Below, piece by piece: positions 3,805-64,000 of a stretch of DNA of 64,000 bases (position 1 is the stretch's first letter; each line of letters begins with the position of its first letter). The translations under genes and the position numbers were made by a program. The notes under the pieces were generated by a model, which was not told the origin of the DNA, ran no database searches, and saw only the letters and a program-made list of their open reading frames with translations. Source of the stretch: a virus (Duplodnaviria; Caudoviricetes); the IMG/VR virus record IMGVR_UViG_3300025640_001000; one strand, written 5' to 3'.

Positions 3805-6441
3805 ATGGAAGAGGATTTTTACTGCGGAGACATCGTTGAACCTGGTAGTCACATCTCATTGGATGATGTGATTCATTATTTTAATATATTTAATGGAGAC
3901 GTTCGTGAGTCTTCGTTATCGCCAACTCAACGCAAATTGCTAAACATTTTAAACTCAGAGCAATATGCTGGAGTAGACAAAACAAATCTTGATGAACTAT
4001 ATAATGTATTATCAGGAATTGCAGCTTCAGTATTATGCGTGGATCGTCCTGTTGAATGTTGTTTAGGAAAAAACGAAATTCAAACATACGGAACAACTGA
4101 AGAATATCCTGCTATAAAAGGAGTATCAGTTCAAGTATTTGAAGAAAACGGCCTTGTTTGTTTTAATGATTTAGAACTAGATGGATTGAGTTATCCATAT
4201 GGAGTTACTGTAAATAAAAAAGATGGAAGTTTCGTTTATGGTAAAATAAAAGCAACTGGAAAATTTACAAACAATGAAATTGTTTATTATTCACCTGCCG
4301 GAGATTTTTACACTGGTCGTTTAACAACAACTTCTGGATTTGATAATCAACTTGATTATGCGGGTGAATGTATCTTAGACGGAGAACCCATACCAAATCC
4401 AACACCAACACCAACATATGTTCCGAAACCTCCGTGTGAAGATCATGCGTGTAATTTAACATTAACTCCACATGATGAATATGTTAATTTCCAACGATCA
4501 TTTAGTATTCTTGGAAATGCCGGAACAGGAGAACGAGAATTAGATGGAAGTTCACAGGTAAAATACTTGGTTCCTGAAAAACTTCAAGTTAATACAATTA
4601 GTTCTCCTGGATATGCTTCTAATTGGGTTTGTGTACTTTTTGATAAACGGTACACTTTGCAAAATAGATTTGAATTTTTATGTACCACTCTTGAGTTTAC
4701 TGCAACCAGTGATCGTGATACAAGTGTTGGTTTTCTTGTTAAGCAGAACGATAGTTACTATCGTTATCAAATGGCCATTGGAACTAACTTTGATTTAAAC
4801 ATCAACGAGTTGCAATTATCACAAGATAGTTTCAAGAAAATTTATGGTGGTGGACCTGAACAACTTGATTTTTACAAAAATGCAGATTTTGAATTTGGAT
4901 TGGATTTTTCAAGTACAGGTTCTTCTACTTTTAGTGTAATAACAAAATTAAGCATTTGTCTTGGTGGAGATTTTCTAGAATCTGAAGAAGCACCCACAGG
5001 ACCAGTTCAACCTACTCCTACTCCTACTCCTACTTATATAGATGATTCTGGAAGTTTGTATCTTGCGAGTGGTGAAGAAACTGAAGTTCATATTCCAAGC
5101 ATAGAATTTTTTGGTTGTGCAGGAACTCCGTGGGCAAGTGTTAAACGAACGGGTGCTAAACCACGATTCGCAGCTAAATATGGTCATGGTCAGACTGGTG
5201 ATGAAAATGGTGGATTTAGTAGTTACTCACTTCAACAAAAAGCATTTGAATTTCGTGGCAATACAATTGTCATAGGAGCACCACAAAGCAGAAATACTGC
5301 GGGTAATGTATATGTGTGGAATAAAAATAAAAGTCTGCAATCTGATGTGATCACCGAAACGGTATGGAAAACTTCAGGTGGAGCAAATCCAAATCAATCG
5401 TGTGATCCAATAAATCAACAATTTAGAGGTGACATTGTTAATAGTGGTTCTAACCTCGGTGACTTCGTTGCACTTAATATAAACGGAACAACTGCATTTT
5501 GTGGAGTTCCGAATTTACCACAAGGAAATCAAACTTCTCAAGTCGCAGGTGGTTATATGGATGTACCGATCAATTCCAGTAATGGTCTTGCAACTTTAAA
5601 TCAAAGCACAACCAAGTGCCACCGTATGATAAATTATGCAAATGGTGCGATGAACATTTCAGGTATTGCAGTAGATGGAAGCAACAATACAGCATTTGCT
5701 CGTCCTGCGTATAGCAATGGAATTGGGGCTGTTCAAATTGGAACTAGTTATGTTTTTTCTCCTACCAGTTCCAACGGACGATTCGGATTGAGTAAAGCAG
5801 GATCAAGAGTGCTTGCATCAGGTAACAATTTCTTTGTTGTTTCAAATTATTCTATAGGTGTAGTTTATATAATAACAAAACAAGGAAATGTGTGGGCAAT
5901 TCGTTCAACGATAAGTGCGGATAATTTACCTCCTGAATTTTCGGACTTGAATGATTTTGGTTTTAATGTAAGTGCTACACCACCAAACAAAACTTCACAA
6001 TACATTGCAGTTCAGGGCAAAAAAACAAATGATCATGTTGTAACTGCGATATTTGGAATTAGTATAATGGGTATTGCAACTTATGCAAATGTAATTGATC
6101 ATGGTTATACAACTATGATGGGATTGTGTGTAAATCAACGAGAAAATTCTATGCTTGGTAACATGGTAGATGTGTATGTTGGAAATGCAACTTCAACAAT
6201 TGATCATTACAATGGATTAACAGGAACAAAAGTTTCAAATACAATTGCTCCTGAGCATGGAAAAATAATAGTAGCAGGAGAAAAAACAACATCTGTGTCT
6301 AATTTAGGTGCGTGTATATCCACGAACGGAACACAGGTCGCAGTTTCGTGTTCTGCATTTGCGTATCAACCAGATGCTCAAGGCAACAAAGTAAATGCGG
6401 GTAACAATTCGTTTATAATATTCGACGTACAAAATAGTTAA
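3805..6441 (+). CDS. Modular virion/surface protein: dockerin-like N-terminus, module B, PT linkers, beta-rich domain, FG-GAP-like propeller
   Basis: CGDIVEPGSHISLDDVIHYF; module B ECCLG...YGKIKATG...YYSPAGDFYTG; IVIGAPQSRNTAGNVYVW, LGDFVALN and FGFNVS are FG-GAP-like. Confidence 0.65.
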   Translation: MEEDFYCGDIVEPGSHISLDDVIHYFNIFNGDVRESSLSPTQRKLLNILNSEQYAGVDKTNLDELYNVLSGIAASVLCVDRPVECCLGKNEIQTYGTTEEYPAIKGVSVQVFEENGLVCFNDLELDGLSYPYGVTVNKKDGSFVYGKIKATGKFTNNEIVYYSPAGDFYTGRLTTTSGFDNQLDYAGECILDGEPIPNPTPTPTYVPKPPCEDHACNLTLTPHDEYVNFQRSFSILGNAGTGERELDGSSQVKYLVPEKLQVNTISSPGYASNWVCVLFDKRYTLQNRFEFLCTTLEFTATSDRDTSVGFLVKQNDSYYRYQMAIGTNFDLNINELQLSQDSFKKIYGGGPEQLDFYKNADFEFGLDFSSTGSSTFSVITKLSICLGGDFLESEEAPTGPVQPTPTPTPTYIDDSGSLYLASGEETEVHIPSIEFFGCAGTPWASVKRTGAKPRFAAKYGHGQTGDENGGFSSYSLQQKAFEFRGNTIVIGAPQSRNTAGNVYVWNKNKSLQSDVITETVWKTSGGANPNQSCDPINQQFRGDIVNSGSNLGDFVALNINGTTAFCGVPNLPQGNQTSQVAGGYMDVPINSSNGLATLNQSTTKCHRMINYANGAMNISGIAVDGSNNTAFARPAYSNGIGAVQIGTSYVFSPTSSNGRFGLSKAGSRVLASGNNFFVVSNYSIGVVYIITKQGNVWAIRSTISADNLPPEFSDLNDFGFNVSATPPNKTSQYIAVQGKKTNDHVVTAIFGISIMGIATYANVIDHGYTTMMGLCVNQRENSMLGNMVDVYVGNATSTIDHYNGLTGTKVSNTIAPEHGKIIVAGEKTTSVSNLGACISTNGTQVAVSCSAFAYQPDAQGNKVNAGNNSFIIFDVQNS

Positions 6442-6445
6442 TATA

Positions 6446-8302
6446 ATGGCAGAGTTAGCACAAAGTGAAGATACCTTAAAATATTACCTCGGTTGGTACG
6501 GTGAGTGCAGCGATGAATTGTTGTGTGCAAATTTCGATTTAACATTCGGAGCAAATCGTGACAAAATTTTTAAAGTTTATCAAATAAACAATATTGGTGA
6601 CAATTATGCTTATTTTGATGGAATGCTTACACCTGAGTTGGATCAACTACAAGGATTCACAGAACTTTTATGTGGTCATGCGTATTTGATTGTTTTAAAT
6701 GATGGTGACGGAGTGCTAGATATACCTGGATTTGTTCACACGAACAGTGAAGATTCAGAACTTCAACGATATTTAACTGCGAGTTGTGAAAATCAAGATT
6801 TACTTGCACAACAAGAATTGGTACAAGATAGAAAAGCACTTACCTATTATCTTGGTTGGTATGGTGGATGTGGTGATATATGTGAAAATTTTGATTTATC
6901 ACCGGTTCATGTTAGAAGCAAATTATTTCGTGTATTTCAAATAAACAAATTTAACGACAATTATACGATTTTTGAACCAACATATACTCAAAAGCAAGAT
7001 GCACTTGGTTTACAAGGTTTTACTCAACTTGAATGTAGTAAAATGTATTTGTTGGTGTTGGAAATGGGTGATGCAGTTTTAGAACTTGATAATTTCACTT
7101 ATACAAAAATTGATTCAGACGATTCTGGACGAATAATCAATGAATGCCTCACAGGTCCCCGTGGATTGAATCCTGGAATACCAAGAGTTGAATTGTTACC
7201 CGAAAGCATAGATATATTCAACGATAAATGGTACGATACAATTGAAGAACCAAAAGCAGATGCAGATTTGTTTAATGTTAATCTTAACTCTGATGGACAA
7301 GTCGTAGAAGACAATTCAATTTATTGTGGAAAATCTATTGTATTTGACGGAGTGATGGGTGCGTATGCTAATCTTGGTACATACAAAGAAAAATTACAAC
7401 TTATGACAATGTGTGTTGAATTTACGATTGATAGCAATGTTGGTAATCGTGAAATCGGAGAAGCAAGTAAAAACTCACAATATATTGTATTTCAGCAAAA
7501 CGAACGAAAAGATGAAAAAAATAGTGGTTTTTATGTTAAATATTTAGAAGATGAAGACACAGAAACTCAGGGACGATTAGAAGTTGGTGTAGTTAAAAAC
7601 AACGGAACTCGGTATTATTTAAAGTCGAATCCATTTTCAATAGTTGCTGACAAACGGTACATGGTATTTTTTGTGATATCAAAAACGATGATTTATTTGT
7701 ATGTTGAAGGTAATCTTGTTGGTACGATGAATAAAACTCCGGGAATCGATTACCACGAAACTCATACAATTCATCTTGGAAGAAAAAGACCAATTGGAAC
7801 AATTCAGGATGCGTATTTTAAAGGAAGAATACATAGATTTGTAATTTGGGCAGAATCACTTGGTACAGACTTTATATATAATTATTATTTACAAAATCGT
7901 TGTAAACCACCGATTGGAGTTGTATATAAATCATGTGAGTATATTTGGAATCCTCCTGCAATACCTGACTTTACAATATCCGCACCAACCACACGAACAT
8001 CTAGAATAGGTGTTGTATACCAAGTATGTTCAACTGGAGGTTCTGATGATTCAATTCAGTTGCCGGCATTACATACACTTGTGGTTCGTCCAAAAGTTCC
8101 ATATCCAAAAGTAATTGGTGTTAAGTATACACCTGGTAATTGCCCATCAGATACCAATTTTTCAAACTACTTTGAAAATTTGGAAAATCAACAAAAATGG
8201 ACCAAACCAAATTCCACAACCGGGGTGATCAATCACGATCCAATGCAATTGCCATCCGACCAAAATACTCCTATACCTGATGATGGTTGGGGAGACAAAT
8301 AA
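6446..8302 (+). CDS. Modular protein: two module A copies plus a LamG/concanavalin-like domain
   Basis: YYLGWYGEC...LLCGHAYLIVL...DIPGF and YYLGWYGGC...LECSKMYLLVL; LamG-like IYLYVEG...IHLGR...YFKGRIHRFVIW. Confidence 0.7.
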   Translation: MAELAQSEDTLKYYLGWYGECSDELLCANFDLTFGANRDKIFKVYQINNIGDNYAYFDGMLTPELDQLQGFTELLCGHAYLIVLNDGDGVLDIPGFVHTNSEDSELQRYLTASCENQDLLAQQELVQDRKALTYYLGWYGGCGDICENFDLSPVHVRSKLFRVFQINKFNDNYTIFEPTYTQKQDALGLQGFTQLECSKMYLLVLEMGDAVLELDNFTYTKIDSDDSGRIINECLTGPRGLNPGIPRVELLPESIDIFNDKWYDTIEEPKADADLFNVNLNSDGQVVEDNSIYCGKSIVFDGVMGAYANLGTYKEKLQLMTMCVEFTIDSNVGNREIGEASKNSQYIVFQQNERKDEKNSGFYVKYLEDEDTETQGRLEVGVVKNNGTRYYLKSNPFSIVADKRYMVFFVISKTMIYLYVEGNLVGTMNKTPGIDYHETHTIHLGRKRPIGTIQDAYFKGRIHRFVIWAESLGTDFIYNYYLQNRCKPPIGVVYKSCEYIWNPPAIPDFTISAPTTRTSRIGVVYQVCSTGGSDDSIQLPALHTLVVRPKVPYPKVIGVKYTPGNCPSDTNFSNYFENLENQQKWTKPNSTTGVINHDPMQLPSDQNTPIPDDGWGDK

Positions 8303-8335
8303 AATAATTTGTAACTGAAATAAAAGAAAAGATAA

Positions 8336-8343: not shown

Positions 8344-8362
8344 TATACAGGAAATATCTGCT

Positions 8363-11300
8363 ATGAAAAACGACAACAATTCAAACAACGACAATGTAAC
8401 TGCATTTGATAACCAAGACAATCCAATTGTGATTTTAGTTGGTGCTGGAAACATGAATACAGCACCTTACTATCCATTTACCTTTGAAGAGGGGGGTGAG
8501 GTTGTCACACAACTTGTTGCAGGTACTTCGTACAAATTTAAAGCTGGTGAAGAATACACCGGTCACCCACTTAATATAGGAACAGGTGGTAGTACGGCAG
8601 AACCACTTGAGGGACTTCAACCTTTTCGTGATGGTGAAGATCCATCACCTGCGGGAATCATGCCATTAAATCCAAATAGTTACTTTAACATCACAGTACC
8701 TGAATCTGCCGAATCTTTAAATTATCAATGTAGTAGTCATATGTCAATGTTCGGTACTTTAACTGTTGTTGAACCTTCAGCAGAAGATACAACTGACGAT
8801 TCATCAACTGAAGAAACTACTGATACTGGTTCAACTGCACCGGGTGCAGTAACAATGTCATTACCAGACGAAATTGTAGTTGATAAAGATAATCCAAATG
8901 CTGGTGACTTTATTTACGTAAGTGGTCGTTGTTATGAAAAAACGAACACCTCGGGGGAAGAACATGAAGTAACACACGATCAAGTATTTGGAGGAATGTT
9001 AGATACCAAATCTGTTACTGTTGTATCACCCAAAGACTCACCCACGGTTACCTCTATATCCAGATATGATGTAATACAAAAGCAATTTACCGGTTGTGAC
9101 GATTGTGGTTCTTATGGTACCAGATATCGTGGTCAATCAAAAGAAACAGGAAAAGATTTTAAAATCAAGGTCATTAAGGAAATTGATTCTGATAACGGAA
9201 GTGTATATAGATACAAATTAAACGGAGAAGATAGAAATGGTTTCTTTAATCTTGTGACCAACCGAGATTTATTATTTTATGATAATGATTCGGTGACATT
9301 TGATATCGGATCGTTGAGTAGTGCTGATAAATCAAACTTTAATGTGACTGCTCAGAACGCTGCCGATGGTGAAAACAAACGGATTGTGGGAAACACACGC
9401 AGTGACCCTGGGTTATATTCAAAATTAAGAAATACAACATCTTCTATTAACGTCGGAGAGTATGCATACAACGAGAATGGCAACTCAGACGATATGGGTG
9501 GAACTATTTTAGTTAAAAAAAATCCATACGAAGACAACATATATTACGATGAAGCAAAACTCAAACAATTTCCTGATAGATTGCTTGCAACTAAAAGTCA
9601 CTCGTTACTTATTAAAAATGATGGTCGTGTTTACGGAACTGGATACAATTCCAGTTTTCAGCTGGGAATTGATCGTGATAGATCAAATTCGTCTCGTCGA
9701 GATACCCTGACGAATTGGACACCAACCTTAATCAATGAAATTGGCCCCATAAAAAAGATTTCAGGATGTGGCAATCATCATTGTTATATTACATACGATA
9801 ATAAATTGTATTTATCTGGACAAAACGATAGAGGTCAACTTGGTCGTGGTGACACCGCACACTCACCAAAACCCCAAATGGCAGAAATCAATCACGCAAC
9901 TGCTTCCGAGGAAGGTAGTGAAACACTTTATTTAAGTGAAGATATTCACACACGAATCATTGATGCAGATGCAGGTATGTATCATACCGTTGCATTGGAT
10001 GTAAATCAACGAATTTGGGTATGGGGAACAAGTGGTACAGCTGGTAATATGCTACTTAGTTTCAACAATAGAACAGGTAGTACCTCCGGATGGAGATATC
10101 AAGAAAGTCCATATAATACTTATGACCCGAGTGGTGCTGGTGGATTTAATACTGGAGGTCATGCTTACATTCAGACACGATCTATTTTGGCATATTGGGG
10201 AGAAACTTCTACAACAAATTCAAATCCTGCGAAGATAACAAATCCAGACCAATTCGATTCATCGACACACATACGACAAGTTGCGTGTGGGTTGTACACA
10301 ACATTTATACTAAATAGTGCCGGAAAGGTTTATAGTTGTGGATACAATGCCAATGGAGAACTCGGTCAAAGTTCTATCGATGGCAGAGAAAATGCAGATG
10401 CCGGTTATGCCCAAAACCCACATAGATCACTCGGAGCGGTATCTAGCACAGGAGGTAACGGAGAGGATACCGAACTGATTCATGTAAAAAAAGTAATAAC
10501 AGGTGATCGTCACACTTTACTATTAACATACGATGAGAAATTATATGGATTTGGAAAAAACACAAATGGATGTTTGGGTAAAGATCCTACTGATGATGCT
10601 TACGAATCAAAACCAATATTGTTATCAGGAGAAGATAAAGTTTATGCAGCTTCTGCTGGTGCCAATTCCACAGCATATATTACATATGAAGGAAAAGTTA
10701 AAGTTGCAGGAAGCAACATAAACGGAAAACTTGGAATAGATAGATTCATCGAAGCACCTGTACCACAAGTGCGAGCATCGACTGAGGAAATAACTTCATT
10801 CACAGAATCACCCAACTTAACGGGTGTAATTGAAATTAAAATGGGTGATCAATATACTCTTGGGTTAATGACCGATGGCCAGATAATCGCATTGGGTGAT
10901 AATCAATATGGTTCTCTTGGAACTCGGGGTAGTATTGATGGAAATTCTGATACGTATTCAAGGTATGACGATGCAGATGCAGGAGTCAATTCCAACAATT
11001 TGCAAAATTTTGGAAGAACCATTGATTTTAAAAACACAGACAAAACATTGATATGTATGCCGAATACCACATTAATTTGGCAAAAAGAAGCCACTACTCA
11101 GAAAGTACAAGCTGCCGGCCGCAGTGCTGAATATCAAGGGGGCTACTATAATGATGTTGCAACGGCTATTGCAGCTGAAAAAGATTTAACCCTAATTAAT
11201 AATACATTGTCAGGTACGGTTACTGAAGACAATGCGACTATTACAAAAATTGTAGCAACACACTCTAATACCGTAAAAATGATAAATAGCAAAGGTGAAT

Positions 11301-12517
11301 TGTGGAGTTATGGGGCAGGAGATCGATATCAACACGGCAACAACAGTGCAAGTAACTCAGCAACTCCTGTTCAACCTATTGCTAATGATGCTCCACTGGA
11401 AAACATTGTAAATGTTGCGGGTGGCCACTATTTTACTCTTGCCTTGGATACAAACAATAGATTGTGGGGATACGGAACTTCCGGAACATACGGTTCATTC
11501 GCAAGAACCTACAACAATAGAACAGGTAGTACCTCCGGATGGAGATATCAAGCAAGTCCATATAATACTTATGACCCGAGTGGTGCTGGTGGATTTAATT
11601 CTGGAGGTCATGCTTACACACAAAACACTGCACAACTATTAAATGACGGTGGACTTCGGGTTATTCCTGATTATGTTGGAAGAATTGTTGATATACAATG
11701 TGGGGGATATACAACATACATTTTAAACGAAGATGGAGAGTTGTTTAGTTGTGGATACAATGGCAATGGAGAACTTGGTCAACGTCACCTCCGTGGAAGA
11801 GAAGATGCGGATGCGGGTGTTACTGCTGGTAATTTACATAGTAGTTTTGGTCAAGTTTATCCGTATACATCAGTTCTTGATGCTCGTGTTAAAAAAATAA
11901 TTCCTGGTGGAAGTCATTGCTTGGTCATAATGGAAGATAATAAATTATATGGATGGGGAGCAAATAATCATTATCAACTTGGATTGTCCGAAGGAAATAC
12001 TGAGGGTCGTATTTTTAAAGATAAGCATCATACTCCTGTATTAATTGCAGACGATGTAGAAGATGCGTTCGCAGGAACATCCAATTCAGCATACAAGAAA
12101 TTAGACGGAAGTGTTTATGCAATGGGTTACAACATTGATGGTCAGATTGCTGGTTGGGGTGATGGTAGAACACTTGGTCTTGATAGACACGATGATATAT
12201 TCGGACTGAAAGACGAAACATCTCATGCTAAAACACCAATTTCTTGGTTTGAATCAAGTGATAGAATATTGGAAATTGCATTCGGAAATCACCACTCGGT
12301 GATAAAACGTGCCAAGGTGAATAGTGCCGAGAAAACTCAGATTGAGTGGTATTCTGCAGGAAGCAATCAATTTGGTCAACGTGCAATTGGACGTGATCCT
12401 GCAGGTGAAAACGGAAAGTGGACGGCAGACGATCACCAAGTATTGGATGTTACTAATATACCAGATTATGTCGGTTCGGATAAATGGGTGAAAATTCAAT
12501 CCATCACATTGGATTAA
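8363..12517 (+). CDS. RCC1/BLIP-II repeat protein (two propeller blocks) with an N-terminal cupredoxin-like module
   Basis: Many RCC1 repeats ([56 protein letters not shown]); GHPLNI...YQCSSHMSM. Confidence 0.85.
10063..10169 (+). repeat. 107-bp direct repeat, copy 1 (copy 2 at 11512-11618)
   Basis: Direct comparison shows 2 mismatches; encodes [35 protein letters not shown]. Confidence 0.9.
11512..11618 (+). repeat. 107-bp direct repeat, copy 2
   Basis: See copy 1. Confidence 0.9.
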
Positions 12518-12519
12518 TT

Positions 12520-15603: not shown

Positions 15604-16239
15604 ATGAAGCAAATAAGTTGGCAATATAAACTTAGAAACTTTACATCGGTTGATGTAGGTGTATTTGAAAATTACTTTGAAGAATTACCGTATGATCCGT
15701 ATGTTAAAGGCAATTTTAGAAAACGAAGATTTTCTTCTATCAAAAAAGATCATTACGGAAAATTTGAGATTCTTCCACATAAAACTTTCACTCAGTCAGC
15801 AGATGTAAATGATTTGCTTGGTGATGTTGTTAGAGAATATGAAGAAATTGAAGAGAACCTTATTTTATCAGATGACTTTTCTAAAATTGTAGAAGGATTC
15901 GCTGCTCTTGCAGGAGTTAATCCTTATATCCAAGAAATCGGAATTCATCAAATGCGTATTTTGTGTTCAGAATATATCAAAGGAGAACCTGCACCTGAAG
16001 GACGACATCAAGATGGATTTGATGTTATTGGTATTTTTTGTGCGAGACGAATCAAGGTTGATGGTGGTGTTAGTGAATTGTTTCTTGGTAAAGAGGACGA
16101 AGATGCAATTTTAGAAAAAATGCTCGAAGAAAATGAACTACTTGTGGTAAATGATCGTGAGGTATTTCACAACGCAACAAAATTGAGTCCAGTTGATATG
16201 GAACTTGGATACAGAGATGTATTCGTTTTTACTGCATGA
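15604..16239 (+). CDS. 2OG-Fe(II) dioxygenase (PF10014 / BsmA / isoleucine-dioxygenase-like family)
   Basis: LPYDPY...RKRRFS, PEGRHQDG (HxD), FHNAT (distal His), RDVFVFT (2OG-binding Arg). Confidence 0.85.
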   Translation: MKQISWQYKLRNFTSVDVGVFENYFEELPYDPYVKGNFRKRRFSSIKKDHYGKFEILPHKTFTQSADVNDLLGDVVREYEEIEENLILSDDFSKIVEGFAALAGVNPYIQEIGIHQMRILCSEYIKGEPAPEGRHQDGFDVIGIFCARRIKVDGGVSELFLGKEDEDAILEKMLEENELLVVNDREVFHNATKLSPVDMELGYRDVFVFTA

Positions 16240-17465: not shown

Positions 17466-17473
17466 GTAAATAA

Positions 17474-17481
17474 TATTTATA
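17474..17481 (+). promoter_or_regulatory. TATTTATA putative late-promoter motif
   Basis: Upstream of 17515. Confidence 0.55.
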
Positions 17482-17514
17482 TTAATCAAACTTAAATAAG
17501 AGTAGGGGGATAAA

Positions 17515-20154: not shown

Positions 20155-20343
20155 GACATCAGTAACGGATCATCTTCAAATGAATATATGGTTTATTTAG
20201 ATGGTGGGGTGATCCTTGGAACTTTAAGCATTCCTGCTTAATACATTTTAAAAATAATTATATGTTCTAATTTTATAGTGTTTGTAAATATTCACGATAT
20301 TACTATATTGATTATATCAATCGTATAAAGTTTGAGTAATATA

Positions 20344-20351
20344 TATTTATA
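20344..20351 (+). promoter_or_regulatory. TATTTATA putative late-promoter motif
   Basis: 4 nt before ATG 20356. Confidence 0.55.
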
Positions 20352-20355
20352 GATT

Positions 20356-20880: not shown

Positions 20881-20885
20881 TTAAA

Positions 20886-22855: not shown

Positions 22856-22873
22856 GATTTGTAACGTATTTAC

Positions 22874-22881
22874 TACTTATA
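22874..22881 (+). promoter_or_regulatory. TACTTATA variant of the motif
   Basis: 3 nt before ATG 22885. Confidence 0.5.
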
Positions 22882-22884
22882 TAT

Positions 22885-23766: not shown

Positions 23767-23783
23767 TAATGTGATTTTGTATC

Positions 23784-23791
23784 TATTTATA
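23784..23791 (+). promoter_or_regulatory. TATTTATA putative late-promoter motif
   Basis: 4 nt before ATG 23796. Confidence 0.55.
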
Positions 23792-23795
23792 TGTG

Positions 23796-24179: not shown

Positions 24180-24190
24180 TATCAGGTGAA

Positions 24191-53682: not shown

Positions 53683-56600
53683 ATGGCAGACTTAACACAA
53701 ATCAATGGAAATCAACGAATCGTCATGGGATGGTACGGTTCATGCGATGATGCAGGATGTGAAGATTTCCCACTCAAAACACAAGAAGTGTCGGATGCAA
53801 TTGATAGTGTTTATGAAATTCATACAGATTCAACCCGAGCAGTTGCATTTCATTCTTACATTTATGAAACGATGCCCAATCAAACTCAATCGTTGGAATC
53901 GTTAAAATGTGGTCATTCTTATTACATTGCATTGAAATCTGGAAACGAAACTTTAACAATTGAAGAATTTGTTCTCGCAGATGAAAGCACAACGCAAGAA
54001 CGATATGTAACAACTGATGACCAATGTGGTGATGGAGGTGATGGTGGAGGTGGAGGTGGAGAATGTCCTGAGTGTCCTGATTGCCCATCAGTTGATCCAA
54101 TAATTTTACCTACAACTGGAACAATTGCGTGTTGGAGTAATTTAAATTTTGCGTTAAACGGATCAGATGCAAATTCATTTCCTAAATACAAAGCAACTAC
54201 TGAATTGGGTCATGTTATTGAAATTTATCATGATTCTGATAATAAAAGATGGATAATCAGAGGTCATGCGGTTACACACGGAGCTCCCACATCAACTCCA
54301 ATTGGATTAGCAGCCTTTTCAAAACCTTCACCCTGTGCATTTTTTCCGTGGCAAGTAGATTGGGATGTAGATAAAAATTCCGAAGACGCATCTGCTTGGT
54401 TACAATCAATAAAAACAGAGTATCAATATTCAAATATATGGTGGGCAATGTCTACTGATTTTCCGCAGGGAGGTGATGTAACTACAATCACAAACTGCAC
54501 ACCACTTACGGCAGAATGTCCTCCTTGTGTTAAAGATGCAACTATTGCTTTTAGTGCGAATCCTACCATAAGAAATCAAGATTCAGTTCCGTTAGGTTTT
54601 ACATTTTCAGTTGATACATCAAGTTTAGCAAGTGAGTGTTCTTCAAACGAATGGAAATATTCTTTGTCTATAAAAGATGGAGAAACTTTAAAAACATCAC
54701 AACAAATTTCAACTGATACAACTTTGATAAATGATTTGGTACCGGGTGGTGGAACTTACATAATAAAAATATGGGGTGTAACTGAGTCCGGAACATTAAT
54801 TACACCTGAACCTCATGTAGAAGCAGAATTGATAATGCCTTGGCCAGCAGCCAATTATGAAGTACAAGATGATATTGATATTACTTACTTGGAATTTGAA
54901 GGACCCAACGATGATTCAGTTACTTTGTCGGATCCAGAAGGATGGGTTGCATCTGCGACAATTAAAAAATCAAGTACAATAACAAACGCAGAAAAATGGA
55001 AATATAGTTTAGACAATTCAACTTGGAATGAATTGACTGCATTAACAGAGACTACTATTTCAACAACTGCAACTTTGTATTTCCGTTTAAAAGTCGGACA
55101 TCTCGGTGGAAATGACGATACAGATTTAACTACCTTGAATAAATCTTACAATTCAGAAGTTACAATTGCTTACACAGAAAATAACGGAACACCACGTGAA
55201 TTATCGTTGCCATTAAAAGGTAAAGTTTTAAATAGAATCATCGGAATAACTTCTTGGGTGAACAACAATAATACAGATTTTAAAGCAACTTTAACAATCA
55301 GCAAAAATCAGTTGACTCGTTGGCAATATCAGTTGGAAAAACTAAACGATGACGAAGCATCATATGGTACTCCTAAAATTTTGACTGCATATGGAGCAAT
55401 TCAATCTGATACTTCAGAGGTAATTGATCTTCAAACTTACATAGAATCATCAACTGCTGATATGGGTCCTGGATACTACAAAATAAGTGTAAGGGGTGTT
55501 CATAATACAGATAATAATATTGTAGTAACTCCGGAAATATCAGTACACGACTTTTTTAATTATCCTGATGTAATATTTGATATAAACGATATTTCATGGC
55601 CAAACTCTAATAGTGAACCAGTGCAGCTGCAGGTTGAATATCGTGAATATGAAGGTCCTACTGAAATGGCACAATTCAAAATCACAAATGACAAGTATTT
55701 TGATCATTGGACATTTGCGTATAATACCGAGTCTTCATCCTTCCCTCCTTCCGATATAACACCCAACACAGATTACAATTATCAACTTGATGACGAATCT
55801 ATTATATCGTCATTGCCCACAACGCACACAAATATAGCAAAAAAAGCACTAGGTATCCAATTGATTTCAAAAAACGCATCAGATACACCAACCGTTTACG
55901 AGCTCGGTGACATCCAATCCCGGGAAGATCCTCTCAGAAGAGACTACTATGCATGGGTCCACATCCACATATACGGTAAAAACGCAATTTCAACACTTGC
56001 AGAACCTGCGAATCCAGTGTACTACAGTGCCGAGGTGACAACTTGGGTTTTAGAACGTTATATAACATCTTTCTCTCCAGACCAACGAGAATCTCCTTAC
56101 CACAACAAAATTACGTTAGATCTACAGTGTAACTTCAATGAAATTAATCGTGCTCAGATAATATGGACAAAAAATACAACTGAGTTAACCGACACAGGAA
56201 TTACACAACTACCAAATTATAATCATTTTATAACACCTGACTACACAATTGATTTGAATGACGTTCCAAGTAATTATCTTACAGATAACAACGATTTCAA
56301 TATTTCAGTTATTGGTCATTCAACAACAGATACCGATGTCATTCACGAAGCCGGATGGATCGCAGGACAAGTTGCACCTGCACTGGAACACACTTTTACG
56401 GTATCATGGCCAACTACAATATTTACGGTGTCGGAAACAATTTCCGATACTTATATTTGGCAAGGTGTTACTGCAACACCAGCAACAAACGGAACATTAG
56501 CATCAATCACAAAAGGTTGGGTTAAAACAATAACATTAAATAATCCCACAGGAACCGATGTTGGCAATTGGCAATATTCAATAAACAACGGAGAAAATTG

Positions 56601-57540
56601 GAGTAATTTGACAGGTGTGAACGTGGAAGTTCCTGATCATACATCAGAAGGACCAAAACTTAAATTTAGATTAAAGGCAAATCTAGAAGTGAATACATAC
56701 AATGATGTAACAGTTGATTTGGTTGCACATGATGTTCAAAGTGCCAATACGACAAAAACAATCAATTTAAATGGTTCAGTAACAAAACCAACTCCAATTT
56801 TCACAATATCACCTACATCTATTTCAGGTGAATATCGTGAAACAGAAGGACCAAGTGCAGAAAAAACAATTACGATTACAACGAAGTTCTTAAGTTCATT
56901 GAAGTGGAAATCATCCGGAGAAATTTCTTGGGAATATTTTGATACAACTTGGAAAGATTTACCAACGAATTATGTCACGATACTGAATAAACCACTTCAA
57001 GCAGGTCAAACACATTCTACACAAGAATCGTTGACGATTAAAGTTCGTTTAAAAGCAGGACTTGAAGTGCCTAATGCAGATGATATGGATACGCAAATAG
57101 AATCTGCAAATTTCAATAATGTAATCACCTTTGAAGCAATTTCATCACACGATGTTGATGTTACTGCCGGAAAGCAAGTTGCATTAAACGGAACGGTAAC
57201 CGAGTATCCAAATGGTTGTGCTGACTATGATTTGTCGTTCGATACAACAGGTAATAAAGTTGTGTATGAAGGTGATGGGGTAACTATTATTGGTTTTGAG
57301 AACGGAGGCCACATTTGCGTTGATAATTTTGGAGGTGAATTTGGAACTAAGAGTATATCACTTGAAGTGCGTGATTCCTCAAATAATGTGATCACAACAG
57401 GAAGTGTCACTACAAATTGGAGTTGGGGTTCTGGAAATAATGTTGTGTATAAAGCACCGGATCAACAAGCATACCAAGTATTGGGATTTTCATTTAGTCA
57501 GGATGGAAATATAATTTTAACACCAATGGATTTAGGCTAA
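53683..57540 (+). CDS. Module A, YxEYEGP stalk (paralog of the 44151 gene), module B
   Basis: [12 protein letters not shown]...LKCGHSYY; [26 protein letters not shown]; GCADYD...GFENGGHIC. Confidence 0.75.
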
Positions 57541-57541
57541 G

Positions 57542-59587
57542 ATGGCAACATTAAAACAAAAAATGTTTGTACCAAAAACCTATATAGGTTGGTATGGGGT
57601 ATGTCCTGAGAACGGAGAAAATGCGTGTGAACCATTTAAATTAATAAGTGATACAAACGAACATACAATTTTACCTGGATCACCTACAACAGGTGATATC
57701 GGCACAAGTCAATTAATTGATTTAATAATTTCATATGAAAATGTGGCCGGAAGTGCATACAACGGAAAGGTAAACAAAGGAATTTCGCAAGGAAATCAAG
57801 GAATTAAAGAACTTATATGTGGAAATGCTTATATAATAGTTTTAAAACCTGGAACTGATGCTGAAAATCTTCTTGAATTTACAATTCCGGAATTCGTTAT
57901 TGGTAATATTGAAAGTGACGAAAAAGAATCGGAAGAATATATTCTTACCACAGGATGTGGAACTGGAGGAGTTGACGAAAGAACTCCAACTCCATCACCA
58001 TCAATTACGACAAGTCCAACAGAAACTCCGAGTCCGTCTCCAAGTCCGTCCGCAACCGAAACTCCGAGTCCTTCACCAAGTCCTTCACCGAGTATCACAC
58101 CAAGTCCGACAATTACGACAAGTCCGTCACCAAGTCCAACAATTACTTCAGACTTACTTGAAGAATGTTGTGAAGAAAATATGTTGACACATGGTTTGAG
58201 TGCATCTCAGATAACATCATTCGGTGAACCAACAATAACCGCAACTGGTGTAACACAAAACGCAACAATTTGCGTTGGAACACCAAGTGGTGAACTTCCG
58301 TATACTTTAAAATTAATAATTGATAATCAGATCGTTGCAGTTTTAACAACAACAGGTACATTTGATAAAACCACAATTTATTACAAAACATCTGAAGGTG
58401 AGTGTTTGATTGGAAGTATCGTAGATGATGAATGTGTATTGTCAACCGGATCATCGTTAAATTTTAGTATAGAAGGTTCAGATATTCATGGATTTGAAAT
58501 TAAAGCAATATTAACTAATGATTCATATTTACAAACCGAAGGTACTGATTGGGTTGCAACTACAATGGGAAATGAGTTGGTGATTTCTGTGGAAGATACA
58601 AAATATTTATCAGATAGCATTGCATCTTTACAATTCTTTGAATTAAGCACGATACCTAATGTTTCATACGATAAAAGTAGTTGTACAATTATAGACGAAG
58701 AATTAACTTTTATTTATCCAATTATTTCGGAAAAGTTAAATGGTGGCACTTTATTAAAGTGTATTGCTTCTAATTTATCATCGTTATATTCACAATTTAC
58801 TGATGACAACACATTTAATACTTTTGTTGATACAGAGAACTTTAGTGTTGATAACATAATTAAAAAATCGGAAAATGATGAATTTGCGAAAAACGATCAA
58901 GTCAATGACAAGGTAAGTAAAAAATTGACTGTTCTGTTGGAATCGGTGAAGTTGCAAAAAAATTATTCATCAAGTAAATCCACAAAAATAATTGACACAA
59001 TTACGGACATAAAAAAATCCCAAAAGGCATTTGATGTATCTCAACTCAAACTTATCGAGAACGATAATTTTGCAAATAGTGTAAATTACTTGCTTACGGA
59101 AATTAGCAAAGATAACACATTAGAAGGTGGTGCTTTCATGAGTTCACTCCGGGAACATTTAAATTTACCATTTCAAGCAATTAACAATATGTCAAATAAG
59201 GCAAAAGAAAAATTGCTTGAAAAACTGAAAAATCATTCACACAAAAAAGATGTTTGTGATTTACAACCACCTTCTTGTTGTGAAGATGATATGAGCATGA
59301 ACACTGTTATCAACGACACATCGGTTCAATTAATAGAATTTGAAAATAATGCCAATGTAACGATTTCAGGAATTTCAGATTCAGCAAAAAATTCGGAAAT
59401 CTGTTTTAGTGAACCGGATACAACAGAAAAAAGTCTTCCGTTCTCGGTAATAATCAAGAAAGACAATGCAATTTTAATGGTGCTGACAAGTGTCGGAGAA
59501 TTAACAAGAAATAAAATCTATTACAGAACAAACAATATATGTTATAGTGGCATTATTGATGGAAATAATGAATGTAATTTGCAATAA
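57542..59587 (+). CDS. Module A, PT linker, module B, helical segment, module B
   Basis: [21 protein letters not shown]...LICGNAY; ECCEEN...GECLIG; SCCEDD...[15 protein letters not shown]. Confidence 0.75.
58097..58137 (+). repeat. 41-bp linker segment identical to 19465-19505
   Basis: See the other copy. Confidence 0.9.
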
Positions 59588-59592
59588 GTATA

Positions 59593-59600
59593 TATTTATG
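59593..59600 (+). promoter_or_regulatory. TATTTATG variant of the motif
   Basis: Upstream of 59629. Confidence 0.45.
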
Positions 59601-59628
59601 AATATTGAAGTAATCAGGAGAATTAAAA

Positions 59629-62600
59629 ATGGCAACAATTAATAAGCAATATAGTTTTATATGGTACGGAAAATGTATTGATACAGGTACAACAAATGGA
59701 GGATGCACTTCATTCACTTTAGATAACAGTGGTGAGTCGGCAAAAATAGACACCGTTTGGCAAGTAGATGAGCTCGGTAATGCAAATGCATGGGTAAATG
59801 GTGCTGAAGGAACACAATCATTTTCAACACTTGAATGTGGTCATGCTTATTATATTAAATTGAAAGGTCCAGCATACGATTGTGATATTCCTCATGCAGA
59901 ATTGAGTGGATATAGTCAAGAGACGGCAACTGCATTCAGAATAACAGAAGATTGTAACGCAGGTGGTGGTGGAGGAGGAACGGTTCTTCAAGCAAGTATT
60001 GCTTTAGGTGCGTGTCAATCCGCAATTACTCTTTCCGCAACACAATTAGATTCAGATGATTCTTATACATCGTGTCAATTACAAAAAACTGGTGCAACAT
60101 TCGTTGCAATTTCCGACACTTTAACAGATAACATTCGTTACAATTTAACAGACGGTGGACTTTTAAGTTACAAAATTGATAATACCGATGATGTGGGTGC
60201 TAGTTTAACTACCGGTGCTATAACTATAACTGCAAATGCAGATGAAGGATATGGATTTGGTAGTCAATCAAATACATTAACTGTTACGATCAACGGTTCA
60301 GTTACTGCTCTTCCGAAACCAGTGATAAATATCACAACCACTGTTTCACCAACTAATACAGTGACATTTATACCAGATTTTAATGATGCAACAAATTGGG
60401 GTGGAACAAATTGGAAATATCGTCTCAAAAATGCAATTGGTCAATCAATTACAAATTACACTACTGTTACTAATTTTCAATCAAATGCAATTGATATTAC
60501 AAATGAGTTTGATCACGCAGGAATTTATACAATAGACGCAGAAATAGTCACGACTGGAGGTGATTCTATTGCTGGATCAACTAAAGTAGAAAATCAATCT
60601 ATTAATATTCCTCGTTTGGCGGCAAATATTTCGGTAGGTAATATTGCTCATGGTAGTATTGATCGTGATACTTTACCAGATACAAAAACTGCTTCGGTAA
60701 CTGCTACCAATATATCAGGAGATTGGAGTATTAAAACTGATGCAAGTAATGCAGCTATTACTGCTACAAAAAATAATAACAATTTACAATCCGTTTTAAA
60801 TACACAAGAACTTGGTGTAATAGATAGTGATAATAAAGTAACGATTTCAGCACAAGGAACAAAGTGGAATCAGGTAGAAACTGCAGGCCTTGGTGGAAGT
60901 GACCTTGTATTAGGTCCTGCAAGCAATGAAGTTACTGCTGAATGTACAATTACTGCTACTGTAACTGATGGTGTAGTATTCACTTCATCAAAATCTTCTG
61001 TAAGTGACAATACACGTGATACGGACGATGCAATTCCATCTCCAACTAAAATCACTATCACCCACGATGATGTAGATAGTTGGGTTGCTTCGTTAAATGG
61101 TACTTCAACAAATTGGAAGTTTAGTACAACGCAAACTGGAACATATAGCACTGATCCAGCAACTTTGTCAAAAAGTGGTTTAGATCATGCACCAGGTACA
61201 TTTGATTTTTGGGTAAAGTATGACACCAATAGTGTTGCGGATGAAACACTCACTTTAACATTATCAGAATCAGCAACTGATGGTCATTCAGACGTAGCAG
61301 ATATTACAATTACTTTAACTGGTGAAGTTACACAAGCAATTGGAACTGCAATTTTCTCAGGATGTAGTTCAATTGATGCAATTTCAATTGAAGTTGGAGA
61401 TACGTCGAACTCCACGAATAATAATAAGACTTGTGATTTAACAACGACTGATTGTAGTGTGGACGATGTGACTGCAACAACATTGGGTATATTTACTTAT
61501 ACGATCACAAATAACAAGGTTAATTACTGGATTACAGATGCATCTAGTGTACAAAGTACGGAAACTGAAACTCTTGACGTCACCGCAAAGGCTGATACGA
61601 ATTTCCTCATTGATGGACAACCTACGAAAATAATTTCAATAACGTTGAGTGGTACGGTAAATGCAAAAACTGCAACTGCTTCAATAACAACCAATCCATC
61701 GGGAGTTGGATCTGTAACTTTTGGTGAAGATTACTCGTCCCAAACCGATACATTTAAAATAACAACAAATGCAAATGCAAATATAACGATCCCTGCCACT
61801 ACTGCTCTACCAATCACCCAAGGTGATTTTGAAATTACCGATATTGCAGAGAGTGGTGGTGTTTATACTTACACATATAAAATAAAAGCAGGTGTTTCCA
61901 CGGGAGCAAAATCTGCAACATATGGGGTGACAGTAAACGCAGATACCAATAGTCAATTTGATGGACTGGCAATCAACGCATCTAAAACAATTAACGTAAC
62001 TTTAAGTGGTACGGTTGAAGCTGCAACGATACCTGAGAATTCAAGCATCGCAAACGGAGCTTGTCCAAAAGATATTTCTCAGGATGCATCAACAACTGCC
62101 ACTCAAACAAGTTGTCAACTTACTCTTGTCAACGCAGTGTGTGTACCAATAACCAATGCTGTTCATGGTGGACTTAAATATTCATTGACTGCACAAGGAT
62201 TGCTTACATACGAAGCAAATGATCCTGAGTCAGTAGGAGAACATTCGCATGAAGTAACAATAACTGCCAATTCAACTGATTCCTCTGCATCATTATTTGC
62301 TGGACAAGCACAGACTGTCACACACAAAGTAACGATGAAAATAACAGTAAATGAAGTGGTTGTTGCCGATGATAAATTGTGGATAGGATTTGCAAAAGAC
62401 GCATCAACATTTTATTCATGGTATGAATTGGAAGCAGTTGAAGAATTAACTACTCAAATTCAATTTGATAATATGGCTACGTTTACTCAGTTCTCTGCTA
62501 TGGCTCCTCCTGCTGAAACACCGGCCGTTGGGGAAAACTTTAATTCAGCAACAATGAATATAATGGGTTCTATATATCCAATAAATACTGCAAATCTTCC

Positions 62601-63168
62601 TGGTGGTGTTGTTATTACTGATTTAAATGGTCTTGAAATAAAAGGAACAGCTGATGCAATGTATGTTGATCTTGTATCAACACTTGATCACACTCAATTT
62701 AAATTCCAAGACGAAGACTTCTATACTTCATTAATGACGGAAATAGGAACTGCCGGCCAGTTGGCATATACAATGATAACTGCGTCACCGACTGAACCAA
62801 ATTCAAGTTCTCTTACCACATCTCAAAAAACAAATTCATACAACAATGATTTTCTGCGATTAAAATGTGGAACAACATGGAACGGAGACCAAGTAGACGG
62901 AACAAAGAAAGCAATTCTAAAAGCAAAGTTCGATTCCTCGGATGACGGATCAGATACTATTGCAACTGCTTCATATACTGCTCAGGTGAGTACAAATGCA
63001 CTATTGACATCGGGTAACTGGAGTGGATGTAATGCTATTTTTGCATCAGGTCAGTTCAACGATTCCAATGGAAACCGTCCACGTATCAAACATTTTTACT
63101 TTGAAACACAAAGTGGAGCAACATTACTTAAGTTCTCCGATAGTGGAACTGCACAACCCCAATGTTAA
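59629..63168 (+). CDS. Module A, Thr-rich Ig-like stalk repeats, C-terminal domain shared with the 44151 gene
   Basis: AGGAG RBS; FIWYGKC...LECGHAYY...DIP; repeated ITLSGTV / TINGSV; LWIGF...YSWYELEAVE...LDHTQF...RLKCGTTWN. Confidence 0.75.
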   Translation: MATINKQYSFIWYGKCIDTGTTNGGCTSFTLDNSGESAKIDTVWQVDELGNANAWVNGAEGTQSFSTLECGHAYYIKLKGPAYDCDIPHAELSGYSQETATAFRITEDCNAGGGGGGTVLQASIALGACQSAITLSATQLDSDDSYTSCQLQKTGATFVAISDTLTDNIRYNLTDGGLLSYKIDNTDDVGASLTTGAITITANADEGYGFGSQSNTLTVTINGSVTALPKPVINITTTVSPTNTVTFIPDFNDATNWGGTNWKYRLKNAIGQSITNYTTVTNFQSNAIDITNEFDHAGIYTIDAEIVTTGGDSIAGSTKVENQSINIPRLAANISVGNIAHGSIDRDTLPDTKTASVTATNISGDWSIKTDASNAAITATKNNNNLQSVLNTQELGVIDSDNKVTISAQGTKWNQVETAGLGGSDLVLGPASNEVTAECTITATVTDGVVFTSSKSSVSDNTRDTDDAIPSPTKITITHDDVDSWVASLNGTSTNWKFSTTQTGTYSTDPATLSKSGLDHAPGTFDFWVKYDTNSVADETLTLTLSESATDGHSDVADITITLTGEVTQAIGTAIFSGCSSIDAISIEVGDTSNSTNNNKTCDLTTTDCSVDDVTATTLGIFTYTITNNKVNYWITDASSVQSTETETLDVTAKADTNFLIDGQPTKIISITLSGTVNAKTATASITTNPSGVGSVTFGEDYSSQTDTFKITTNANANITIPATTALPITQGDFEITDIAESGGVYTYTYKIKAGVSTGAKSATYGVTVNADTNSQFDGLAINASKTINVTLSGTVEAATIPENSSIANGACPKDISQDASTTATQTSCQLTLVNAVCVPITNAVHGGLKYSLTAQGLLTYEANDPESVGEHSHEVTITANSTDSSASLFAGQAQTVTHKVTMKITVNEVVVADDKLWIGFAKDASTFYSWYELEAVEELTTQIQFDNMATFTQFSAMAPPAETPAVGENFNSATMNIMGSIYPINTANLPGGVVITDLNGLEIKGTADAMYVDLVSTLDHTQFKFQDEDFYTSLMTEIGTAGQLAYTMITASPTEPNSSSLTTSQKTNSYNNDFLRLKCGTTWNGDQVDGTKKAILKAKFDSSDDGSDTIATASYTAQVSTNALLTSGNWSGCNAIFASGQFNDSNGNRPRIKHFYFETQSGATLLKFSDSGTAQPQC

Positions 63169-63183
63169 CGGAAGGTTATATAA

Positions 63184-64000
63184 ATGAGTTATTGCGAATG
63201 CCATGATGATTATGTAAATTCAGGAACATTTGATTTATCTAATGTTCGGGTTTATCGTGCGTTTCAAGTTTTTCATGAAGGTGGAAAGCAACCTATGCCT
63301 GGCCAAGACTCATCGACACCTATCATGGACAGATTCACGACATTCTATGCGGATGGCCAAGCAAGTGGTGCTTATCCTGCAATTGGTGCAGCTGTAGTAA
63401 CACTACCAGCAGACCCACCGGAAGAAGGAATTTGTGCAAATTATGACGAAGATGAAGCAGGAGTCTTATCATTGTCCGATTATCGTATTTTTCGTGCATT
63501 TCAAGTGTTCCATGAAGGTGGACGACAACCAATGCCAGGTCAAGACTCATCAACATCCATTATGGATAGATTTCTTGCATTTTACGCGGACGGCCAGGCA
63601 AGTGGTGCATATCCTGCAATCGGAGCAGACGTTAAGCACTTACCTATTCTTGAAGCAGATACTCAAGTAATTACCGATGAAGGTCTTGTTGACAAATGTG
63701 ATACGGGTGCAGTTTGTACTTGCAGTGCAGTTGTAGAAGATACTGTATTAAAAGTTGATTTTGATGCAAGTGAGTTGACAGGTGGAAACGGAGACATAAA
63801 AGGTGTGGAAATCGTATTTGATAATGTTGTATTCGGAGAAAAAACAGGATTATCAGGAGGTAACGCAATCATAAACGACAATTTTAAAGATACTAACGAT
63901 GCAGCTACTTTAGACTTTTATTATGATTATAGCATCCGTTCAACCTCAGTAAACGATATAGAAACAGAACCAAACAAAACAAAATCGGTAATTGGTTTCA
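63184..64000 (+). CDS. 3'-truncated paralog of the 47590 gene (missing from the ORF track): tandem dockerin-like repeat then a cohesin-like domain
   Basis: Translated by hand, open to the window end: MSYCECHDDYVNSG...YRAFQVF...CANYDEDEAGVLSLSDYRIFRAFQVF...VKHLPILEADTQVITDEGLVDKC...DIKGVEIVFDNV. Confidence 0.85.
   Translation, partial: MSYCECHDDYVNSGTFDLSNVRVYRAFQVFHEGGKQPMPGQDSSTPIMDRFTTFYADGQASGAYPAIGAAVVTLPADPPEEGICANYDEDEAGVLSLSDYRIFRAFQVFHEGGRQPMPGQDSSTSIMDRFLAFYADGQASGAYPAIGADVKHLPILEADTQVITDEGLVDKCDTGAVCTCSAVVEDTVLKVDFDASELTGGNGDIKGVEIVFDNVVFGEKTGLSGGNAIINDNFKDTNDAATLDFYYDYSIRSTSVNDIETEPNKTKSVIGF

Follow-up and report, generated by a model that had tools for sequence, protein, structure and literature searches.

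The DNA analyzed here is a stretch of 64,000 nucleotides (nt), below called the window, from the IMG/VR virus record IMGVR_UViG_3300025640_001000 (Duplodnaviria, Caudoviricetes); from position 3805 to its end, it carries an array of co-directional genes for large modular proteins, designated below by their start coordinates. A preliminary description, made from the sequence alone, had named four recurring modules (A, B, dockerin-like, and cohesin-like) and likened the array to a cellulosome. Hidden Markov model (HMM) profiles retain two of the four, as A and B are present in numerous copies, whereas no profile supports a cohesin-like module, or a dockerin-like one in 3805, 47590, and 63184. 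A and B are undescribed domain families: they match nothing in Pfam, PHROG, or NCBIfam, have no PDB sequence match by profile, and are unrelated to each other in profile–profile comparison (hhalign).

Module A, about 100 amino acids (aa) long, is visible already as the common N-terminal segment in all-against-all BLASTP of the window proteins, and the HMM built from nine window copies identifies 16 copies in 15 co-directional genes. The clear copies, with independent E-values (i-E) from 1e-23 to 1e-41, are those of 6446 (two), 12520 (internal), 24536, 25806, 26553, 39939, 42521, 42858, 44151, 53683, 57542, and 59629; the copies in 27902, 31483 (with an insertion), and 31982 are weaker. The signature of the module is GWYGxC...C..F.L ... 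L.CG[H]xY.I.L..G......IP.F, and in 64 relatives residues W17, Y18, G19, C21, C27, C76, G77, Y80, and C114, four conserved cysteines among them, are invariant or nearly so. The AlphaFold2 model from the A alignment is a beta-sandwich (mean predicted local distance difference test, pLDDT, 85.9). Foldseek finds no PDB match for this model, and no language-model look-alikes of A were found. In the ESM atlas, template modeling (TM) scores of 0.5–0.56 are reached by unannotated Chloroflexota proteins and a CARDB protein, none a convincing relative.

Module B is a Cys-rich module of some 95–110 aa, with about 15 copies in 10 genes: 3805, 24536, 25806, 36953 (two), 39939, 42858 (two), 47590 (two), 53683, and 57542 (two), plus a marginal piece near the N-terminus of 12520. 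It typically starts with CC[DE]xxM and ends with ...IYY.T...CY.G.I....C.L. HMM matches are strong in 3805, 36953 (both), 42858 (both), 47590, 57542 (both), 25806, and 39939, weaker in 24536, 53683, and the second site of 47590, and only marginal in 12520. The AlphaFold2 model of the first B of 57542 (58154-58450; B alignment) is all-beta and very confident, with a mean pLDDT of 94.9; Foldseek retrieves no match for it from PDB or the BFVD viral models, and similarity to the ESM atlas stays below a TM score of 0.45. Judging from this model, B may be a new fold, of which weak matches are no proof.

The modular genes of the window are as follows (LamG, laminin G domain; LRR, leucine-rich repeat; PT and PS, Pro/Thr and Pro/Ser linkers; CBM, carbohydrate-binding module).

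3805-6441, plus strand: 878 aa; short acidic loop-helix N-terminus, B (4054-4380; i-E 3e-32), putative CBM/galactose-binding-like module (4321-5019), large unclassified C-terminal region; no Pfam match
6446-8302, plus strand: A (6455-6751; i-E 7e-41), A (6818-7114; i-E 4e-23), and LamG (Laminin_G_3, E 2e-9)
8363-12517, plus strand: 1384-aa RCC1-repeat beta-propeller (WD40_RLD, E 3e-134), without A or B
12520-15513, plus strand: internal A (13672-13962; i-E 1e-23) between long PT linkers; marginal B-like piece near the N-terminus (i-E 0.013-0.019)
17515-20154, plus strand: 879-aa DUF285/BspA-LRR protein (DUF285, E 1e-37; LRR_5, E 9e-12) with PS/PT linker, without A or B
24536-25804, plus strand: A (24548-24835), B (25193-25333), and a weak C-terminal B (HMM)
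25806-26537, plus strand: A (25818-26174) and B (26217-26501) (HMM)
26553-27881, plus strand: A (26562-26837; i-E 8e-34) and a C-terminal region of no recognized family
27902-31411, plus strand: degenerate N-terminal A (i-E 2e-3) and two LamG (Laminin_G_3, E 4e-17)
31483-31977, plus strand: A with an insertion of about 80 aa (weaker HMM match)
31982-32911, plus strand: partial A (weaker HMM match) and a region of no recognized family
32972-36850, plus strand: 1292-aa LamG protein (Laminin_G_3, E 2e-25), without A or B
36953-39937, plus strand: B (37685-38008; i-E 1e-31), LamG, and B (39581-39928; i-E 3e-42), without A
39939-42509, plus strand: A (39954-40226), LamG, and C-terminal B (42186-42452) (HMM, Pfam)
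42521-42886, plus strand: stand-alone A, 121 aa (i-E 6e-41)
42858-44147, plus strand: A (42870-43187), B (43281-43514), PT linker, and B (43827-44141) (HMM)
44151-47573, plus strand: A (44160-44459) and about 1000 aa of an unrecognized family, also found in 53683 and 59629
47590-53643, plus strand: 2017 aa; two N-terminal repeats of about 70 aa (47590-48018), Gly-rich domain (ALK_LTK_GRD, E 4e-11), PT linkers, weak B (53005-53142), C-terminal B (53350-53634; i-E 1e-31)
53683-57540, plus strand: A (53692-53988), unrecognized region, C-terminal B-like module (57217-57417) (HMM)
57542-59587, plus strand: A (57551-57913), PT linker, B (58163-58447), spacer, C-terminal B (59273-59584) (HMM)
59629-63168, plus strand: A (59641-59913) and about 1070 aa of an unrecognized family; no Pfam, PHROG, or NCBIfam match
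63184-64000, plus strand: first part of a 330-aa protein sharing the pair of N-terminal repeats seen in 47590

The HMMs reproduce almost all of the architectures proposed earlier: A alone (31483, 42521), A+B (25806), A+B+B (24536, 42858, 57542), A+A+LamG (6446), and B...B without A (36953); for the B...A arrangement of 12520, the A part is confirmed, but the B part is only marginal. A small conserved module stands at the N-terminus throughout much of the array, A in 14 of the 15 genes that have it and an acidic loop-helix in another four or five, and it is from this position that an address or assembly role of the N-terminal modules is argued. Four large proteins (8363, 17515, 32972, and 36953) have no recognized N-terminal module. 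The 44151 and 53683 proteins are 28% identical over 785 aa.

A 300-nt direct repeat (42525-42824 and 42865-43164, 92% identical) identifies the stand-alone A gene 42521 as recently duplicated from the A module of 42858. A 307,820-bp ENA contig holding the upstream part of the window ends, by coordinate arithmetic, at about window position 42,680, that is, within this repeat, which hence probably breaks short-read assemblies. Within the RCC1 gene 8363-12517, a 107-nt repeat (10063-10169 and 11512-11618, 98% identical) indicates recent internal duplication or conversion of propeller blades. A module of about 112 aa is common to 12484-15513 (aa 582-695) and 17515-20154 (aa 93-204), with 39% identity, E 8e-16, and no Pfam match. 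In related contigs, a gene encoding at least 3004 aa (contig L006, 14561-23540) comes after that of the 63184 protein, past the 3' end of the window. Its product begins with a short acidic segment and contains long PT linkers, two B modules, and a repeated unit of about 200 aa with a GCxCCP motif that also occurs in 36953.

The Pro/Thr/Ser linkers of the preliminary description are indeed pervasive between the modules and are seen as large DNA repeat families. Its list of payloads fared unevenly: Pfam confirms LamG (6446, 27902, 32972, 36953, and 39939) and the Gly-rich domain (of the ALK/LTK type, in 47590), whereas CBM5/12, discoidin, FG-GAP, and Ig-like domains have no significant Pfam match in the window, the F5_F8_type_C match of 32972 reaching only E 0.024. 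The other payloads confirmed by Pfam are the RCC1 propeller of 8363 and the DUF285/BspA-LRR proteins (2-2629 and 17515). Parts of the LamG proteins, e.g., 32972, match PHROGs named "baseplate wedge subunit" and "virion structural protein," at the domain level only, and the 8363 protein matches the PHROG RCC1 families and a "tail protein" PHROG (E 1e-8). A 230-aa module common to 3805 and 39939 is a lead to a CBM- or galactose-binding-like domain, suggested by language-model comparison only; the module common to 39939 and 47590 has no language-model look-alike. Cysteine makes up about 2% of the modular proteins.

As claimed earlier, signal peptides and membrane anchors are not evident: a crude Kyte-Doolittle scan of the window proteins gives neither a signal-peptide-like N-terminus nor a convincing membrane helix. 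NCBIfam yields no match for ten proteins, including those ending in B, and thereby no C-terminal sorting domain, so the combination of signal peptide and type IX secretion system (T9SS) sorting domain found in Bacteroidota surface proteins is not seen here.

The two modules and their order extend far beyond the window. The search of 1.84 billion representative proteins with the A profile (16 copies) gives 391 clusters at E≤1e-3; with the limit set to E≤1e-10, 212 are left. Among the 150 top representatives, A starts within 15 residues of the N-terminus in 143 (at residue ~4), and it is in tandem in 15; B is present in 31, and in 25 out of these 31 it lies within 25 residues of the C-terminus. 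Thus, the order "A first, B last" characterizes the family as a whole and not the window alone. One relative (P0035) has four B copies, and another (P0013) has an internal A, as in 12520. The array itself recurs on an independent 112-kb contig from another sample (L003), where at least eight consecutive co-directional genes have N-terminal A, several of them with B; A and B copies number about 16 and 15 in the window, and nine and 10 in L003. On three further contigs (L002, L009, and L010), A- or B-family genes lie beside LamG genes. Relatives with A carry LamG, FG-GAP_2, Calx-beta, Big_2, Big_13, fn3, TSP1, and DUF6174, all of which are extracellular or binding-type domains. All matches are unannotated and come from metagenomes (ENA, JGI, Logan, Tara), none from an isolate. 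This mapping of the modules and their co-occurrence across metagenomes, which the preliminary description had suggested, upholds its central analogy as far as small conserved terminal modules displaying interchangeable binding domains via PT linkers are concerned. As in sets of tail fibers and receptor-binding proteins, the paralogs combine a conserved N-terminal region, there serving attachment, with a variable distal region.

The dockerin and cohesin part of that analogy is not borne out by the profile searches. The recurrent N-terminal repeat itself is real: the two ~70-aa repeats of 47590 and the two of 63184 are clearly homologous in the alignment, each has one loop-helix, and together they characterize a small family of metagenome-derived proteins some 320-380 aa long. 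A dockerin would be expected to score at least 22.9 bits, the Dockerin_1 gathering cut-off, and to have two segments of about 22 residues, each with a Ca-binding EF-hand-like loop followed by a helix. The 47590/63184 repeats have no Dockerin_1 match in Pfam even at E≤1, nor has their profile a PDB dockerin match; likewise, neither the 3805 N-terminus nor that of the long downstream gene (at least 3004 aa) has one, even at E≤1-10. A count of EF-hand-like motifs was given no weight, as the pattern derives from the same sequences and is circular. The nearest approach is the N-terminus (P0208) of the DUF285 protein encoded in part by 2-2629, lying 5' of the window: by eye, it has two acidic loop-helix, EF-hand/dockerin-like segments, and Dockerin_1 (PF00404) is its sole Pfam match, yet with 12.7 bits and E 0.15 it remains below the cut-off. 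In the PDB, its sequence weakly matches EF-hand proteins (E 0.03) and the dockerin 6kg9 from Clostridium (E 0.73). The dockerin likeness is therefore a lead limited to one protein. A cohesin would be recognizable by its profile or by a nine-stranded jelly-roll like that of solved cohesins. The cohesin profile (PF00963) has no match in any window protein at E≤0.01, and no cohesin is found among the structural matches of the A and B models above noise.

Outside the modular genes, the window and its immediate surroundings contain the following.

2-2629, plus strand: 3' part of a 1138-aa DUF285/BspA-type LRR protein (DUF285, E 6e-29); the gene begins about 787 nt 5' of the window and is complete in contig L004
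2572-3168 and 3169-3783, plus strand: two sulfotransferase-family genes (Sulfotransfer_2, E 3e-14), paralogous to each other and directly 5' of the first modular gene, 3805
15604-24499: enzyme block with a 2-oxoglutarate (2OG)-Fe dioxygenase, a class-V aminotransferase, a CCA-adding enzyme with an HD domain, and a DEDD-type exonuclease

A ClpC-like gene lies just upstream of the window. Nearly all open reading frames of at least 100 aa are on the plus strand and packed tightly, at ~35% G+C; the operons are co-directional, with intergenic gaps of 1-16 nt. The 2OG-Fe dioxygenase (PF10014) and class-V aminotransferase genes (15604-17465), within the modular array, overlap by 4 nt. There are neither tRNA genes nor cellular housekeeping genes in the window. 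Over 95% of its length, the CCA-adding enzyme shares 54% identity with the product of a gene of a 735-kb uncultured phage (LR756501/LR756503), the Lak megaphages giving the next-best matches; megablast of the enzyme block against phages finds no match. The DUF285 proteins and gene 20356 match PHROGs. Proteins identical to those of the window are found on metagenome contigs of up to 492,783 bp (493 kb), and the metagenome collection has an identical copy of the 6446 protein in 70 of its blocks, contigs of 0.2-1 Mb being present in 21. Taking together the kinship of the CCA-adding enzyme, these long contigs, and the lack of housekeeping genes, the host element is probably a huge phage of marine plankton with a genome of at least 0.49 Mb, which supports the phage origin assumed earlier. 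Its DNA is present in marine metagenome runs of 17 studies from 2014 to 2025. From G+C content and relatives, we infer a Bacteroidota-type host. The Moraphage lineage has Bacteroidota hosts, genomes of up to 307 kb, and a ClpA-like core gene (PMC12619734), and is a possible relative of this phage.

Two sequence motifs recur across these genes. A TATTTATA-like motif is located 5-45 nt before the start codon of the first gene in most operons (upstream of 3805, 8363, 15604, 17515, 20356, 23793, 24536, 32972, 53683, and 59629), and as it precedes modular and enzyme genes alike, it is a candidate phage promoter. Three unrelated proteins, encoded by window genes 20356 and 20886 and by L004 2191-2739, have near-identical N-terminal leaders, MQSIKLKDLLPEG, MAIIKLKDLLMEG, and MKLKSLLSEAK, which may act as a common signal for targeting or processing. 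Contigs from two metatranscriptome runs of a single study overlap parts of 3805, 6446, 8363, 12520, and the CCA-adding enzyme gene; DNA carry-over is possible, and hence this is no proof of expression.

The strict polarity of the modules, the interchangeable binding-type payloads behind a constant N-terminal module, the missing export signals, the Cys-stabilized modules, the PT linkers, the tight operons, and the huge-phage setting together suggest an extracellular display structure released by lysis, of which virion fibers or decoration would be the simplest form. We thus favor the interpretation that the modular proteins are paralogous virion surface fibers or adhesins with A as the shared N-terminal attachment module, and would put its chances at about even. 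The family would then be a lineage-specific, expanded set of large modular proteins that are not Sec-exported and have a fixed polarity: N-terminal A (or an acidic loop-helix), Pro/Thr/Ser linkers, one or several payloads, and often B at the extreme C-terminus. The proteins would be synthesized in the cytoplasm late in infection; A would dock them onto one repeated virion site on the head, the tail, the baseplate, or another fiber; the linkers would keep the payloads off the virion surface, and the payloads and the B tip would bind glycans or proteins of host cells or particles. The result would be a multivalent, exchangeable adhesin coat on the virion. Virion location, A as anchor, B as distal tip, and late expression are presumed components of this scheme.

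A number of observations weigh against it. Capsid, portal, tail, sheath, and baseplate genes are absent from the window and the fetched flanks, and so the placement in or beside tail or baseplate morphogenesis genes that marks sets of tail fibers and receptor-binding proteins is not observed there; moreover, the modular array is interrupted by the enzyme block 15604-24499. Tandem A-A, stand-alone A genes, and the internal A fit one anchor per fiber poorly. Neither A nor B is similar to any known virion anchor or fiber domain. The best PDB match of A in exhaustive VIA-align, to C-terminal accessory domains of subtilases, has Z 4.5, within the noise range (as are collagen-binding-type domains and XepA/YomS, at Z 3.7-3.8), and that of B in the wide VIA-align search has Z 3.7; the modules thus have no clear structural neighbor. 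Tblastn with A against 50,697 deposited phage records gives no match, nor does the A profile search of the 735-kb phage record, the latter being a weak negative.

Some of the same features would be accounted for if A itself were a lectin-like ligand binder, so that A, B, and the payloads all contact the target and virion attachment, if any, proceeds via other parts. A is a small beta-sandwich whose weak neighbors (Z 3.5-4.5) include PPC and collagen-binding-type accessory domains; it has the invariant aromatic residues W17 and Y18; tandem A-A, in 15 of the 150 relatives, is typical of binding modules; and A can be internal (12520, P0013). However, these structural matches are at noise level, and the N-terminal position of A in 143 out of 150 relatives is unusual for CBM-type modules and typical of an address or assembly module. 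We therefore consider a lectin role of A unlikely, even if it is the alternative that survives best.

A slightly less probable explanation places the proteins outside the virion, either inside the cell or released by lysis; they might, for example, clump cells or particles, alter or hide the host surface, or act as decoys for other phages. It agrees with the lack of morphogenesis genes nearby, with the neighborhood of the array, which adjoins sulfotransferases, ClpC, and RNA-repair-type enzymes and not tail genes, and with the absence of the family from sequenced phage isolates. On the other hand, proteins without signal peptides could not reach the host surface before lysis, the Cys-rich, PT-linked, lectin-type architecture is typical of extracellular structures, and more than 60 kb of genome would be a high cost for a soluble released product.

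The network envisaged in the preliminary description is improbable in its cellulosome-like form, in which B would receive A, or a cohesin-like module would receive the dockerin-like N-termini, or both, and proteins combining a single A with more than one B would be the branch points of a self-assembling adhesin mesh. The head-to-tail geometry of N-terminal A and C-terminal B in the same proteins is what such a mesh would require, and the four B copies of P0035, the similar A and B copy numbers in both arrays, and the stand-alone A genes are all in line with it. The same is true of the acidic N-terminal modules standing at the position of A, one of which has Dockerin_1 as its sole, sub-threshold Pfam match, and PT linkers with small Cys-stabilized modules are cellulosome-like. 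Nevertheless, no protein has a cohesin profile match; Dockerin_1 is approached by a single protein (12.7 bits against 22.9), with no match in 47590, 63184, or 3805; and neither A nor B resembles the cohesin or the dockerin fold or any other known interaction module. As B is found in only 31 out of 150 A-bearing relatives, most A modules would lack a B partner on A-bearing proteins. The co-fold from the A and B alignments scores 0.00, below the mark, and counts neither for nor against A–B binding. A bolder variant, with A, B, and the acidic N-terminal modules as cognate docking modules of novel folds that build a branched or daisy-chained, possibly glycosylated or sulfated adhesin coat after lysis and oxidation, is about as improbable; if true, it would extend the cellulosome principle to viruses and parallel, in a virus of bacteria, the fibril layers of giant viruses.

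Finally, a cellular origin of the contig, from a bacterium or symbiont whose surface adhesins these genes would encode, is very improbable: BspA-LRR, LamG, RCC1, and PT linkers are common in bacterial surface proteins and the window has no phage hallmark gene, but there are no signal peptides, lipoboxes, T9SS C-terminal domains, or NCBIfam matches, all of the roughly 30 genes share one orientation, with hardly any space between them and no housekeeping gene among them, the CCA-adding enzyme has its best relatives in huge phages, and the contigs of 0.2-0.6 Mb carry almost only genes without known families.

To our knowledge, huge phages are known almost only from metagenomes. The modular family described here takes up more than one tenth of a genome of about 0.5 Mb and recurs in the marine metagenomes of many studies. 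If A were indeed the universal attachment module of the virion fibers, it would provide a handle on the virion receptor site, help to predict the decorating proteins, and explain how one phage displays a dozen or more binding specificities. A and B, being small, Cys-stabilized, and tolerant of payload exchange, would also be candidate display scaffolds. It is already known in principle that phage surface proteins can form paralogous sets which keep the attachment end constant and exchange the binding end; new are the two domain families, the fixed A...B bookends, the scale (at least 15 genes and more than 60 kb in one genome, with more beyond the window), and the setting in a recurrent, uncultured huge marine phage.

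The closest known systems include jumbo phages with capsid fibers (Tenacibaculum phage PTm1/PTm5), tail hairs (Erwinia phage Y3), or hyperbranched tail fibers (Klebsiella phage phiKp24) (PMC13282480). The multi-fiber jumbo phages, e.g., phiKp24, resemble the window array in having many paralogous fibers or spikes with conserved N-terminal attachment, sometimes to another fiber, and variable distal binding domains. However, their N-terminal anchors belong to known families (gp10-like and related) and their payloads are mostly depolymerases, whereas A and B have no counterpart among known families or folds, lectin- and propeller-type binders serve as payloads here, PT linkers take the place of fibrous shafts, and no baseplate genes are nearby. 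CBA120-type tailspike branching is a further multi-fiber example. PTm1/PTm5 and Y3 are likewise large phages with many surface appendages, one of them infecting a marine flavobacterium, but the same tblastn search with A reveals no sequence link, and their appendage proteins have not been shown to be so modular.

Cellulosomal dockerin–cohesin systems share with the array small terminal modules, PT linkers, interchangeable payloads, and, at one N-terminus, a possible Ca-binding loop-helix pair (Dockerin_1, E 0.15); they differ from it in that here there is no cohesin match, the dockerin match is sub-threshold, signal peptides are lacking, A and B are unrelated to either fold, and the payloads are binders and not enzymes. 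Hoc of phage T4 and pb10 of phage T5 combine a small capsid-binding module with outward Ig-like or lectin domains, thought to give weak adherence to glycans. Decoration of this type involves a single gene and one architecture, whereas the array described here comprises at least 15 genes with diverse payloads and undescribed terminal modules as putative anchors.

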